DNA of 64,000 bases from an uncultured Nitrospiraceae bacterium (lineage in GTDB: Bacteria > Nitrospirota > Nitrospiria > Nitrospirales > Nitrospiraceae), in NCBI GenBank assembly GCA_963846575.1, contig CAWJWJ010000001.1:384001-448000 (forward strand), read 5' to 3'. The stretch's first letter is position 1. Each line of letters starts with the position of its first letter. Position numbers: made by a program. Of this stretch, positions 32,601 through 35,600 are shown piece after piece.

Positions 32601-35600
32601 GTGCCCGAAGGATACTCAATCCCACACTGCCAGCACGCGTGATCTGAGGAGTCGAAGCCTTTGTAAAACCGTGTATTAGATGGAGGTAGTTATCATCCTT
32701 CGGTTGATTCAAAGCCAATCGCAAGACAGACAACTCAGCCATGTCCCCTCTAAGATTTGCCTCGCAGCCCTTACGCCACAGTAGAAGTTGCCGCCATCCC
32801 CATCTTAATCCCAGCGAGAGCGAATCCCTCTATAGGCCTCTCCTGCCTTACAGCTAATGGACTGTGGAGCCCTAAGTTCCGAATAAGTTCAGCGTCATAA
32901 GGGTCCAACCGGACGACCTGGGGAAAAGCGTCGGTCCTCTCAAAGCGATGAGGTTGTTTGCCCTTGTCAGGCAGGGGCTCCAGTTCAGCAACAATATTAT
33001 CGACATCTGGAAAATAAACATTCCCACAGTGCCGAGTTTAGCTATATGGTGATAGTGAGAATTGTTATCAATGTGCGTGCGCCCTGTTCACATGTTCACG
33101 CGAGAAGGAACTGAACGGTTGTTTATGTCCCTGGCTTGAACAGTTCCCGTGCCGATCATGCCCGTCAGTTCGGGAGGAACAGCGTGCAAGGACCCACTGG
33201 ATGAAGACGGTGGTTATCCATCGTCTTCGTCCAGTGGCTTTCCACCCAGTCGAAGTGGATGAGCGGTGATTCGAGGAACCCCGCTGGATACGGAAGTTGC
33301 TCGGCGATCGAACTTCGACGGACTCCTCTGCGTGGGGGTACCATGGAGGTGCATCACCCTGCGATGAGCACTTCCCGCTTCCCCTCGGGCGCCGCAGATT
33401 GTCACCTAAACCGTTGCGCCAAAGTCGCGCACACTATCTGAAAAATCAAATTAACATGCCGCCCACTGCGGCGCCCCATCCGGTCCCGCGATTTCAGCAA
33501 GTGATAACGCCTGGTCGTTGAGATCGGAGGACCGGTTCATAATCATTAACCCAGGATACTTCAATGAAGGTGCACGAATGTCCCGGCTGCAAGCACAACA
33601 GTCTGGTTCCCACAGGAGGGTTCCTATCGTGTGGGCATTGCGGCTATGCCATCACAGCCGCCGCACTAGCTGTCGAGCAACGTCTTCGTCAAGGTCAGCC
33701 ACTACACAGAAGATAACCATCTCAGTGGTACACACCATGCTCAAAAGGGAAGCACGTGAGAAGCATCTGATGAACACCGGCGGGAATGATCTCCCTGCCA
33801 AACTTAGCCTCGTCGTATCAATCCTTATGGTGTTATTAGCTCTTATTGGAGGTTGTCTGCGCTGAACTTGTCTTGACGATCAAAAAACACCTATGCATCC
33901 ACATTTATCCAAACTGATGCGTCCGTTATCGAATTGGATACACCGCCGCACTTCCAAAGTCTGACCCTGGCACAGCTTTGCCAACCTAGATACTAATAGC
34001 CTTGGAAAAACAATTTGTTATGGCGCACGTGACATACACGATCATTTGGTACGCGAGTTGCTGTTATCAGGGAAATGTGGCGAGACTAAGTGAGATCACT
34101 ATTTGATCAGAGGAGGATTCCATCATGCTTTGGACCATCGCAATATTAGGAACCTACATCGCGGGCATTTATCTGATTCGCCTCGTATGGTGGCAGGAAT
34201 AATGCCCGCTTTGTCGGGGCCATCCACTCCGTTCTTTCAGACCACGCTGAGATCCGCATCCCCTGGAGGCTTCATGACCGCTGCGACTGAGTCGCCTGCA
34301 GCCAGGGAGAGAGTTTGCCCCCTCCAACGCAGGATTATGTTGCGAGGCGTAGCAATACTACACTGTCGTCCATGCATCCGAACCTCCCCATACCGATCAA
34401 ACCGCTAGTCTCCACCACCTTTTCCGGAATCACCCTTAGCTTTCGCCGTACGCGAGATCGGTGGGAAATAGTCTGTCCCGTTATATTCGCAGGCGCCCCA
34501 TTCATTGGAGAGGGGACCCTCCATAACCTCTCACAAACTGGATGTACGGTAGATTGTAACCGCATGGTACTGGACGGCAGCTACATGACTCTTCGCCTCC
34601 TGCTGCCTGACAATCATCGCTCGCTTGGAATAGACCTCGGAGCCGTACGCTGGGTTCGTGGGCAACACTTCGGCATAGAATTTCTGCGCATCCCCGCCAG
34701 TGAGCAAGCCCGACTAGACCGATTCCTTACACTTCTTCGGCATGGATGAGCCGCTTTCCCCAGTTAATTATTTAGGATTGGATCATTTTCATTGGAGTGA
34801 AATTTTCGAGGGCATGGCGTGCCAGGACTGTCAGTGTCCATCGGGACTCAAAGGAACATTTCGAAAGACCCCACGCGAGTGTTAGAGGTGCGACCATCAC
34901 TTCACGACCAACTTGAAAGACTGGTTTTCACAAGCTTCGATTTGTTCCCGCGCATGTATGAGACGCAACGGTAGAGACAGGTCGACAAGCAAGCACCATG
35001 CGATTCCGGTGTTCTGGAATGTTAGATGTCCCCTGTCGCTTGCATCCCAGATCATCGTCTGCCGAATGATCGCACGTAAAGCAGGACCTGCCAGGCTTCC
35101 TCTTCCGTAAGAATCAGAGGAACGAATGAAGCCATATCGGTTCCAGGGCTCCCATTTTTCAGGATCCAGAACAGTTCTCCATCCGTTCTCGCCGCCTGCC
35201 ATACCTTGTCGGTGAAATTCCGTGGCAGCCTGCCACGTAGTCCTACGATATCGCCAAGCCCTTTGCCATCTCGTCCATGGCAGGTTGCACAAAAGGCTTT
35301 CCCGTGGAAAATGACCTTCCCTCGCTCGATGTTGTCCGCAGTCGATTCAAATGGATTCTTCCACGTTCTTGCCTCCTCTATCTGGTCAGGTAGTACGCGC
35401 GGTTTCAATACCTCGGCATCGGCAGCGAAGGACGGTGCCGTCAGCACCCCGGCCAGTAATATCCACGGCCTCAGGAAGGTGGGTAACCGATTCAACGCTC
35501 CCTCCGTCGTTTCAGCATATAGGACGATGGGCCAGGAGAAGCCCCACTCTCCTCCTCAAAGCTCATCCTGATCTGGTCAGCCTGCATCACCTATTCTCTT

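Follow-up and report, generated by a model that had tools for sequence, protein, structure and literature searches.

The window considered here is a stretch of 64,000 nucleotides of DNA from an uncultured Nitrospiraceae bacterium. At the locus under study, a promoter region directly precedes a structured RNA, which is followed on the same strand by several very small genes; a candidate second regulator and its operon partner are encoded upstream on the opposite strand. By position in the window, the features are as follows.

33009-33024, plus strand: -40 promoter element GGAAAATAAACATTCC, an inverted GGAA...TTCC motif, present in 33 of 37 RNA loci
33043-33048, plus strand: -10-like hexamer TATATG, read from the sequence
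33050-33070, plus strand: putative Fur-type operator palindrome TGATAGTGAGAATTGTTATCA, scoring 35.7 bits with the operator matrix
33075-33244, plus strand: core of the structured non-coding RNA, identified by a covariance-model match of 137.7 bits, fold, covariation and lack of codon periodicity
33073-33089 paired with 33177-33193, plus strand: closing helix P1
33093-33142, plus strand: arm P2
33144-33176, plus strand: arm P3, with the invariant loop CAUGCCC
33194-33237, plus strand: hairpin P4, whose 20-bp stem has no mismatch and whose loop is 4 nt long
33259-33461, plus strand: decayed remnant of a gene for a 66-aa CxxC...CxxC zinc-ribbon protein, with no start codon and with frameshifts
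33564-33716, plus strand: 50-aa zinc-ribbon ORF (CPGC...CGHC), a distal gene of the cluster
33737-33865, plus strand: 42-aa ORF with a hydrophobic C-terminal helix; a similar ORF occupies the same place in G001 and G021
34125-34202, plus strand: putative 25-aa hydrophobic ORF behind GAGGAGG, read from the sequence only
34315-34749, plus strand: PilZ-domain protein (Pfam PF07238, 5.9e-9), the last gene of the cluster on this strand
25255-25722, minus strand: PerR-like Fur-family regulator, a candidate second regulator (NCBIfam PerR 130.8 versus Fur 93.6 bits, both below the curated cut-offs)
24801-25226, minus strand: rubrerythrin, in an operon with the PerR-like gene

The coordinates and anatomy that an earlier survey gave for this locus proved correct when the DNA was re-read. 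The 2.2-kb stretch that it described as empty is not so, since it holds the decayed 66-aa ORF, three small ORFs and the PilZ gene.

The RNA is real, structured, non-coding and specific to its genus. Its plus strand folds at -88.7 kcal/mol (z -5.76), and none of 200 shuffled sequences folded equally well; the minus strand folds at -76.6 (z -4.47). A covariance model yields full-length matches on the plus strand only, the minus-strand matches of 21-38 bits being to the hairpin alone. RNAalifold, applied to a MAFFT alignment of 21 sequences, gave 52 pairs with compensatory changes in 22. When 37 sequences were aligned, 92.3% of cells were paired, versus 36.3-43.7% when slid, and 31 of the 52 pairs carried double changes, versus 16.7+-2.4 in shuffles (0/500). 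Minimum free energy folds of single sequences recovered between 15 and 45 of the approximately 52 consensus pairs in 14 of 15 sequences that lay outside model building; the fold of a decayed copy, G015b, recovered 2 of 50. Within P4, 16 pairs belong to the consensus, 8 of these show double changes and 95.9% of cells are paired, the apical part of the hairpin differing among genomes. G-U pairs are numerous in the 37-sequence consensus, which likewise points to the plus strand, and the nucleotides of junction and loops are highly conserved.

These results confirm the survey's finding of a non-coding structured RNA and independently reproduce its many compensatory changes. The closing helix that it described also stands, but the three hairpins said to lie inside it are in fact two arms, one of them long and irregular. 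Spurious ORFs with lengths of 40-150 aa extend across the region in several genomes, and its conservation might accordingly stem from a protein-coding region, an element acting at the DNA level or mere chance. That the sequence is no functional RNA at all nevertheless has next to no likelihood, given the compensatory changes, the strand specificity of the model scores, a folding energy far below that of shuffles and the absence of any 3-nt periodicity across the RNA region (0.223/0.242/0.224).

The distribution of the RNA is wide within the genus and confined to it. BLASTN detects the RNA in 22 of the 39 genomes of the genus; with the covariance model, 35 of the 39 give a full-length match, scoring 94-195 bits, and these include 27 of the 29 high-quality genomes, although genomes of one genus are not independent samples. 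Conservation thus extends beyond the at least 24 of 39 genomes reported before. Outside the genus, scanning 133 genomes with the covariance model gave one match only, of 23 bits. The earlier statement that no Rfam family corresponds to the RNA was upheld even at E<=10, where the search returned no credible match but only three chance hits, to families of eukaryotes or archaea and well short of the gathering score in each case.

In the promoter region, the -10-like hexamer is TATATG in the window and TATAAT, TATACT or TACAAT in relatives; the survey had placed the -10 correctly, but the TATAAT that it gave is typical of most relatives rather than of this genome. The right end of the GGAA...TTCC element lies approximately 18-19 nt before the -10, which would centre the element near -40, and we infer a transcription start near 33055-33058. 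The -40 element, found in 33 of 37 loci, is more constant than the operator (27 of 37) and is kept in all six genomes of a subclade that has no operator. In the paralogous locus G038b, a canonical TTGACT-17-TATGCT promoter stands in its place. A scan of this genome for consensus promoters did not report the promoter of the RNA. A genome scan with a matrix of the -40 element found a second-best site of 20.2 bits (C2:1205250, before an AMP-binding gene), versus 19.7 in the control, which is not significant. No motif resembling the element was found in those parts of the CRP/FNR regulon literature (PMC8510549) that were examined.

Directly 3ʹ of the -10 hexamer is the palindromic operator. Fur boxes are AT-rich inverted repeats of approximately 19-21 bp with the consensus GATAATGATAATCATTATC. 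The sequence GATAGTGAGAATTGTTATC matches this consensus at 15 of 19 positions, and its arms, TGATA...TATCA, are inverted. A site of at least 12 bits is present in 27 of the 37 RNA loci, as counted with a matrix trained on RNA operators only, from 25 of those same 37 loci. The operator is absent from the other 10, among them the six-genome subclade, which retains the RNA.

Beyond the RNA loci, the same matrix recovers sites at genes for iron uptake. In the iron-uptake cluster adjacent to fur, it finds a site before a porin-like gene in 6 of 6 genomes, a site between fur and the gene for an iron-ABC binding protein in 5 of 6, and a site before ferritin in three; both the placement and the sequence of these sites are maintained across the six genomes. 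The genes behind them encode an iron ABC transporter, ExbB/ExbD/TonB, the porin-like protein and ferritin. Four distinct sites above 12 bits fall within the 18.5-kb fur cluster of G000, where approximately 0.16 would be expected, as there are about 36 such sites in 4.2 Mb. The next best operator site (19.1 bits, C2:1204878) lies between AraC and AMP-binding (NRPS-type) genes and reproduces the second site that had been reported before the NRPS-type genes. Moreover, G015 has a second operator copy before genes for an ECF sigma factor and a TonB-dependent receptor. The Fur-like operator proposed for the promoter is thus supported as a motif type shared with the iron-uptake genes next to fur. Judged from these motifs, the link to iron is firmer than one second site would make it. 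Because of its place behind a Fur-type site and ahead of genes for very small, cysteine-rich proteins, the RNA is probably a new regulator that responds to iron, although it may not be a free-standing one.

Three Fur-family paralogues are present: Fur, a second Fur-like protein and the PerR-like protein. With the gene for this last regulator nearby, and with an AhpC/TSA peroxiredoxin gene after the RNA in some genomes, another signal is possible. The operator or the -40 element might be bound by a PerR-like or other regulator, and the RNA might belong to a response to peroxide or redox stress instead of iron. The PerR-like gene and rubrerythrin lie 7.4 kb upstream of the RNA here and approximately 4 kb upstream in relatives. 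AhpC/TSA follows the RNA in G021 and G004, with similar N-termini encoded at six further loci, and genes for a di-haem cytochrome c peroxidase, a cytochrome c and a DUF1264 protein adjoin the locus. The promoter of the PerR-like gene contains a palindrome, AGGAATCATTCCT, which is invariant in seven genomes and whose GGAA/TTCC half-sites resemble those of the -40 element at 10 of 13 positions. However, the half-sites of the -40 element are approximately 5 bp further apart, and the PerR-like gene and the RNA are far apart in G016. The operator matrix, which detects the conserved sites at fur and the iron cluster, finds no site at perR-rbr. A genome scan for the PerR box (AGGAATNATTCCT) was also tried, but it was too unspecific to be of use, with 116 sites at two or fewer mismatches. 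On balance, we regard a non-iron signal as unlikely.

In 26 of 37 loci, an intact 66-aa ORF preceded by a Shine-Dalgarno sequence begins 21-34 nt 3ʹ of the RNA, an interval too short to accommodate a separate promoter. This ORF shows a clear coding signature, with differences at the three codon positions of 0.16/0.19/0.48. The remnant in the window (33259-33461) was recognised by alignment with the intact ORFs of four relatives and by translation in three frames, fragments such as AIEL and WRCI being in different frames. Orthologues of the 50-aa ORF occur in the same order in G021, G004, G003, G005, G011 and G033, and the PilZ gene is syntenic in 10 of 11 compared loci. The arrangement varies in detail; AhpC/TSA takes the place of the 66-aa ORF in G004, and five ORFs lie head to tail after the RNA in G021. 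The paralogous locus G038b duplicates the operator, the RNA, the zinc ribbon and a 73-aa gene as one unit. Furthermore, a deletion in G033 has removed the RNA together with the 66-aa ORF, but the -40 element is kept approximately 60 nt before a 51-aa zinc-ribbon gene; this arrangement shows a promoter of the -40 type that apparently serves the distal small genes where the RNA has been lost.

The 66-aa protein itself is obscure. No Pfam family matched it above cut-off, a word-indexed search found only two close relatives, and the ESM Atlas lists only clusters of "hypothetical protein" from Nitrospirota. Its AlphaFold2 model has a mean pLDDT of 63.1 and is weak outside the zinc ribbon. The small zinc-ribbon proteins encoded behind the RNA carry basic tails. 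Of 60 loci elsewhere whose products are related to the 66-aa protein, none carried the RNA. At 53 other loci of the zinc-ribbon family, the operator matrix detected no Fur box, the best score being 10.4 bits (random 99th percentile, 9.1).

Together, these observations are consistent with a structured RNA that is restricted to the genus, heads an operon for small proteins under Fur control and would probably act in cis, a reading to which we would give an even chance. The RNA would make up the first 190-215 nt or so of a longer transcript that also spans the genes for the small cysteine-rich proteins, as their spacing suggests. The order of this predicted unit would be the 66-aa zinc ribbon, AhpC/TSA in some genomes, a 72-aa protein, a 50-53-aa zinc ribbon, small membrane peptides and PilZ. 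Its promoter, which has a weak -35, may rely on the conserved GGAA...TTCC element near -40 and a putative factor that recognises it. In most genomes, a Fur-family repressor is predicted to close this promoter by binding the 21-bp operator, from about -6 to +15, and iron limitation would open it. The transcript would then fold on its own, P1 enclosing P2 and P3 and being followed by P4. Most likely the RNA would act on its own transcript, influencing the stability of the mRNA for the small proteins, its translation or its read-through. Some points weigh against this reading, among them the absence of the RNA from the 60 loci with relatives of the 66-aa protein and the failure to find a conserved alternative pairing in it. 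Pairing is also retained to a similar extent beside a broken or missing ORF and beside an intact one (46.3/52 versus 47.7/52 pairs kept), and the function of the RNA is thus independent of that ORF. The RNA may also bind a protein or metal, and a stable 5ʹ fragment ending at P4 may be released in addition.

The same structural integrity beside a decayed ORF, as in the window, would suit a free-standing RNA that ends at P4 and acts in trans during iron starvation, an analogue of RyhB, PrrF, FsrA or IsaR1. According to this possibility, Fur releases the promoter, mRNAs for dispensable iron proteins are bound by conserved unpaired segments, the P3 loop CAUGCCC among them, and the downstream ORF is either expressed by leak-through only or unrelated. 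The operator at 27 of 37 loci, of the type found at iron genes, fits with this, as do the invariant P3 loop and the long, GC-rich, covarying hairpin at the end of the RNA, which is followed by U-rich tails in G035 and G038b. However, no U tract follows P4 here or in most loci, the UUC of P4 being paired with GGA at the base of the stem, and a terminator scan of this genome did not report P4 as terminator-like. What had been called a 16-bp terminator-like hairpin is a hairpin, here of 20 perfect pairs, with no run of U behind it. The missing U tract is weak evidence, because terminators consisting of a hairpin plus U are barely enriched genome-wide (135 versus 100 in the control), and in a genome where canonical terminators are rare, a hairpin alone might end transcripts.

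Other observations also count against an RNA of this kind. The Shine-Dalgarno-bearing ORF begins too close behind P4 to have a separate promoter, the promoter left in G033 appears to serve distal genes, and 10 of the 37 loci bear the RNA without the operator. A search for Hfq (PF17209) gave no match in G000, which is 99.93% complete. When the complement of the P3 loop (GGGCATGA) was used in a crude genome scan, it matched 268 sites, of which 15 lie at plausible ORF starts; these 15 share no theme, and none is obviously iron-related. Being 170-195 nt long and having a junction of several helices, the RNA is also larger and more complex than known iron sRNAs. Hence, of the survey's proposal of an sRNA resembling RyhB and PrrF, the iron-type operator holds, but the free sRNA with its own terminator is not supported, given the absent U tract, the adjacent ORF and G033. 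A free-standing, trans-acting RNA is possible, though doubtful.

The order of promoter, P1-closed junction, strong hairpin, ribosome-binding site and ORF is also that of an attenuation riboswitch, in which the P1-P2-P3 junction would serve as the aptamer that binds a metal or small ligand, and P4 as the terminator of the expression platform. The high conservation of junction and loop nucleotides is in line with such a role. Nevertheless, P1 and P4 do not overlap and are formed together in every fold, and no conserved alternative pairing was found in the RNA. One candidate antiterminator, in which CAGCG from the 3ʹ strand of P1 would pair with CGCUG from the 5ʹ strand of P4, is broken by variants in the alignment; another alternative, pairing the 3ʹ side of P3 with the 5ʹ strand of P4, is likewise not kept among variants. 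Nor is the Shine-Dalgarno sequence consistently sequestered, its probability of being unpaired ranging from 0.18 to 0.82 in 11 genomes. Riboswitch classes usually recur across genes and taxa, whereas this RNA occupies one locus in one genus, is absent before the 60 related genes and matches no Rfam family. With neither a conserved antiterminator nor a U tract, a classical riboswitch is improbable.

A more ambitious version of the operon reading can be put forward as speculation, one that we consider unlikely. The locus could be a self-contained, Hfq-independent iron-stress module, in which a Fur-released RNA and a co-transcribed zinc-ribbon RNA-binding partner, in the manner of FsrA and FbpA/B/C, would reprogram the iron- or haem-rich respiration of lineage-I nitrite oxidisers, with peroxide or redox state as a second input through the -40 GGAA...TTCC element.

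Nitrospira oxidise nitrite in soils and wastewater plants, relying on enzymes rich in iron and haem. In the part of the literature that our search covered, no paper on regulatory RNA of Nitrospira was found. The locus described here represents a well-supported new RNA family with a readable promoter logic, in which a Fur-type box is joined by a second conserved element, and natural variants without the operator, the ORF or the whole module are available for comparison. It also provides a first sketch of the Fur box for the genus and a first regulatory context for an unnamed family of small zinc-ribbon proteins found across Nitrospirota. Iron-responsive post-transcriptional control in slow-growing nitrite oxidisers is thereby made directly testable.

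RyhB of Enterobacteria and PrrF1/2 of Pseudomonas are Fur-repressed, iron-sparing sRNAs that both need Hfq, a need that is not universal among Fur-regulated iron-sparing sRNAs. Like them, the Nitrospira RNA has a Fur-type box overlapping its promoter, and the box type recurs at iron-uptake genes of the same genome. Compared through Rfam, however, it matches them in neither sequence nor structure, and it is approximately twice as long, with a multi-helix junction. It further differs in having no U-tract terminator, a co-oriented ORF 21-34 nt downstream, no Hfq found and no operator in 10 of 37 loci. IsaR1 of cyanobacteria and IsrR of Staphylococcus, which are short, free-standing, Fur-regulated sRNAs independent of Hfq, illustrate that sRNAs of this kind have evolved separately in different phyla and need not depend on this chaperone; their C-rich seed motif has no counterpart identified in the RNA described here.

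In Bacillus subtilis, where Hfq is not the main chaperone, the Fur-controlled RNA FsrA occurs alongside the small basic proteins FbpA, FbpB and FbpC, whose genes Fur controls as well. The pairing of a Fur-type RNA with genes for very small proteins is similar here, the proteins being the basic-tailed zinc ribbons encoded right behind the RNA, but in this case RNA and small ORFs appear to share one transcript. A chaperone role for these zinc-ribbon proteins would be pure conjecture. A structured regulatory RNA and a small ORF are combined on one transcript in SgrS/SgrT and RNAIII/hld, which, like sRNAs derived from riboswitches, belong to the dual-function or leader-embedded RNAs. Unlike in these systems, the ORF lies 3ʹ of the whole structure and is dispensable for keeping the RNA, and the entire module is dispensable in G033. 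Finally, structured 5ʹ leaders, both riboswitches and leaders that bind proteins, differ from this RNA in that no mutually exclusive structures were found for it and it is limited to one locus in one genus; it resembles them in its position between promoter and ribosome-binding site, its junction closed by a long-range helix and its conserved unpaired nucleotides.

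At the centre of the locus, the forward strand carries a 170-nt stretch that folds into four helices (P1-P4), preceded by three promoter-proximal elements:

33009-33024 (+): -40 element, an inverted GGAA...TTCC (sequence reading)
33043-33048 (+): -10-like hexamer, TATATG in this genome (sequence reading)
33050-33070 (+): operator, the 21-bp palindrome TGATAGTGAGAATTGTTATCA (sequence reading)
33075-33244 (+): structured RNA stretch, 170 nt (folding)
33073-33089 with 33177-33193 (+): P1, long-range helix enclosing P2 and P3 (fold)
33093-33142 (+): P2, long irregular arm (fold)
33144-33176 (+): P3, hairpin arm (fold)
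33194-33237 (+): P4, perfect 20-bp hairpin 3ʹ of P1 (fold)

The fold energy of the + strand, -88.7 kcal/mol (z -5.76), was equalled by none of 200 shuffles; the - strand folds more weakly (-76.6, z -4.47). By BLASTN, 22 of the 39 genus genomes contain the stretch, at 69-78% identity; from a MAFFT alignment of 21 of these, RNAalifold derived a 52-pair consensus in which 22 pairs carry compensatory changes. A covariance model made from this alignment after trimming, whose E-values are rough, matches at full length (94-195 bits) in 35/39 genus genomes and in 27 of the 29 high-quality ones, which bears out the survey's finding of conservation in at least 24 of 39; on the opposite strand the hairpin alone scores (21-38 bits). 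When 151 genomes sampled across the family were searched, the model matched 16/17 other genus members and, outside the genus, 1/133 genomes (23 bits). Among the four genus genomes without a match, a YkgJ-like neighbour gene was also not found in three (66, 79, and 94% complete; single protein query), so the region is possibly unassembled there, whereas G033 (97% complete) has the flanks and truly lacks the RNA.

The structure is further supported by covariation, which had also been claimed earlier and held here. In an alignment of 37 sequences, which was built with the covariance model and so leans towards its structure, 92.3% of cells are paired, compared with 36.3-43.7% when the partner is slid, and both sides have changed in 31/52 pairs versus 16.7±2.4 in shuffles (0/500); because the genomes are related by descent, such counts are of non-independent events. 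Folding single sequences provides a check independent of that alignment: 15-45 of the ~52 consensus pairs were recovered in sequences the model had not used (n = 15, apart from a decayed second copy in G015, which regains 2/50). The alignment columns vary without any three-nucleotide periodicity (0.223/0.242/0.224), in agreement with the survey's reading, and an Rfam search up to E<=10 returned nothing credible, as also reported before. The RNA is thus real and non-coding, is encoded on the + strand, and is confined to the genus; that it should be non-functional is extremely improbable.

The -10 box, described earlier as TATAAT, has that sequence in most relatives, but reads TATATG in this genome. 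The operator scores >=12 bits in 27/37 loci, by a matrix trained on 25 of the same loci, and is absent in 10, six of which form a subclade (G030, G024, G007, G028, G016, and G014) whose -10 lies ~7 nt before P1. More constant is the GGAA...TTCC element, found in 33/37 loci and always ~19 nt upstream of the -10, which places its centre near -40. The -35 region matches the consensus poorly, and in a paralogue that lacks the element, a canonical TTGACT-17-TATGCT promoter stands in its place. On these three grounds, GGAA...TTCC is taken for a putative activator site or UP-like element. Further upstream (29466-32700), this genome alone has, behind tRNA-Arg(ccg) and tRNA-Lys(ctt), a segment of ~3 kb that separates these tRNAs from the RNA promoter. 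It contains an integrase-like remnant and a 284-aa ORF, together with dCMP-deaminase-like and SnoaL-like genes, and resembles a small islet that was inserted at the tRNA.

The 2.2 kb around the RNA, previously regarded as empty, is instead a small-gene cluster (calls other than Pfam matches come from a simple longest-ORF script):

33259-33461 (+): decayed remnant of a 66-aa gene, frameshifted and without start codon
33564-33716 (+): 50-aa zinc ribbon, following the remnant
33737-33865 (+): 42-aa ORF
34125-34202 (+): 25-aa ORF
34315-34749 (+): PilZ

Most relatives have, 21-34 nt past the modelled RNA, a Shine-Dalgarno sequence and a start codon that open a 66-aa ORF (MxCSRCGG.L..EPS.DFY.PE..WRC.NCG), intact in 26/37 loci. 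Differences between genomes fall on its codon positions as 0.16/0.19/0.48 (first 36 codons), and the ORF is therefore translated. A Pfam search assigned the protein to no family; it belongs to an unnamed zinc-ribbon family of 50-100 aa spread across Nitrospirota (138 representatives at E<=1e-3; 119 genomic stretches), with several paralogues per genome, the motif MxCxxCGGxh..E....DF.....W+C[IV]NCG, and commonly basic tails (loci L122-L201; proteins P0013-P0064). At other loci of this family, the RNA was found in 0/60 and an operator-like site above background in 0/53. Further same-strand genes come next; in G021 these encode AhpC/TSA (Pfam 2.8e-9), a 72-aa protein, a 53-aa zinc ribbon, a small membrane peptide and, further along, PilZ. 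G004 has lost the 66-aa gene, and AhpC/TSA directly follows the RNA. The ~72-aa protein, whose conserved motif is C-[TS]-C-G-K-[LV]-H-F, matches DUF6686 only weakly (E 0.005); its gene accompanies those of the RNA and the zinc ribbons, and is absent from the window:

L024 (G021) 8666-8884: ~72-aa protein
L023 (G001) 8709-9011: ~72-aa protein
L064 (G004) 658-876: ~72-aa protein

P4 had been described as terminator-like, a description that is not supported: it has no U tract, the UUC past it pairs with GGA at the stem base, a terminator scan did not call it, and in most relatives the ORF lies right behind. U-rich tails follow P4 only in G035 and the G038 paralogue. Hairpin-plus-U sites are barely enriched in this genome (135 versus 100 in a reversed-sequence control), which makes the missing U tract weak evidence either way and suggests that classical intrinsic termination is presumably uncommon here. 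Gene arrangement says more about the role of P4, and three loci outside the window bear on the module:

L081 (G038:C19) 1025-1700: second copy; sigma-70 promoter, operator, RNA, 78-aa zinc ribbon, 73-aa gene
L066 (G015:C25) 1430-3172: second copy; operator intact, RNA no longer folds
L204 (G033:C27) 1380-2082: natural deletion; -40 element kept

The gap between P4 and the ORF is too short for a promoter; the G038 paralogue copies operator, RNA, zinc ribbon, and 73-aa gene jointly; and the G033 deletion takes out the RNA along with the 66-aa gene and most of the operator, leaving the -40 element and an apparent left half of the operator ~60 nt before a 51-aa zinc-ribbon gene. Together, these arrangements point to a promoter that would serve the small-protein genes, with the RNA as the 5ʹ part of the unit. 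The RNA is more than an accessory to the first ORF: in the 11 loci with that ORF disrupted or missing, it keeps 46.3/52 pairs, versus 47.7 where the ORF is intact.

With about even confidence, the RNA is read as the structured leading part of an operon gated by Fur. The free, trans-acting, RyhB-like sRNA proposed by the survey is a possibility to which we give roughly half that weight; a whole-genome search of G000 found no Hfq, so that Hfq would play no part in any action in trans. A classical riboswitch is very unlikely. No conserved alternative pairing was found in the RNA, nor any consistent pattern of Shine-Dalgarno masking.

The genome has three Fur-family genes: fur itself, which adjoins genes for an iron ABC transporter, ExbB/ExbD/TonB, a porin-like protein, and ferritin in the iron-uptake cluster; a second, Fur-like gene near a PepSY protein; and a PerR-like gene (25255-25722) with rubrerythrin.

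C2:244600-263100 (L121): fur iron-uptake cluster; ABC binding protein, permease, ATPase, ExbB, ExbD, TonB, porin-like, ferritin

In a genome scan with the operator matrix, the RNA's own site scores 35.7 bits and the control maximum is 17.4. The runners-up are C2:255094 (19.2 bits) and C2:1204878 (19.1 bits), the latter between AraC and an AMP-binding gene, confirming the second site claimed at the AraC/NRPS-type genes. The 18.5-kb fur cluster holds four distinct sites >12 bits versus ~0.16 expected from ~36 such sites genome-wide. Three recur elsewhere in the same places, near letter-for-letter: before the porin-like gene (6/6 genomes), between fur and the binding-protein gene (5/6), and before ferritin (3 genomes). 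With the RNA operator they share TGAwATTGAGAA, and may offer a first sketch of the genus Fur box, TGAwATTGAGAA...TCA. Downstream of the second copy in G015, which adjoins an IS21-like ORF, genes for an ECF sigma factor and a TonB-dependent receptor follow after ~290 nt. From this operator and the conserved fur-cluster sites, Fur is predicted to be the most likely repressor at the RNA promoter.

Alternatively, the signal could be peroxide or something else instead of iron, which is unlikely. A second signal may also act here, and several neighbours would fit one. Synteny places the PerR-like gene 4-7 kb upstream of the RNA:

24801-25226 (-): rubrerythrin, in an operon with the PerR-like gene (25255-25722)

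Its promoter (within 24801-25850, -) reads TTGCCG-N17-TGCTATGT, then the palindrome AGGAATCATTCCT, and is virtually invariant in 7 genomes; the palindrome is probably an auto-operator, a candidate for defining the genus PerR box. Additionally, a peroxiredoxin lies within the small-protein operon in some genomes, and a cytochrome c peroxidase gene is adjacent to it. The -40 element has half-sites akin to those of AGGAATCATTCCT at wider spacing; given that genome scans with this palindrome lack specificity, the likeness is no more than a lead. The block adjoining the small-protein cluster (35052-37503, -; cytochrome c, DUF1264, di-haem cytochrome c peroxidase) is syntenic in most compared genomes, with DUF1264 duplicated in some.

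Under the Fur-gated operon reading, Fur would occupy -6 to +15 and block the promoter when iron is sufficient. Under iron limitation, and with a factor at -40, transcription would begin near 33055-33058; the nascent RNA would fold into P1-P3 and P4 while RNA polymerase continued into the small-protein genes. The conserved fold may then act on its own transcript through stability, translation, read-through, or protein or metal binding, and the RNA may also persist as a stable 5ʹ fragment.

In the literature that was searched, no paper dealing with regulatory RNAs in Nitrospira turned up. The RNA is a new RNA family of a known kind, the Fur-gated regulatory RNA or leader. Functionally, RyhB/PrrF, FsrA together with its Fbp proteins, or IsaR1 may be its counterparts. 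However, it belongs to none of them, since it has no Rfam match and differs from all of them in size, fold, and gene context.
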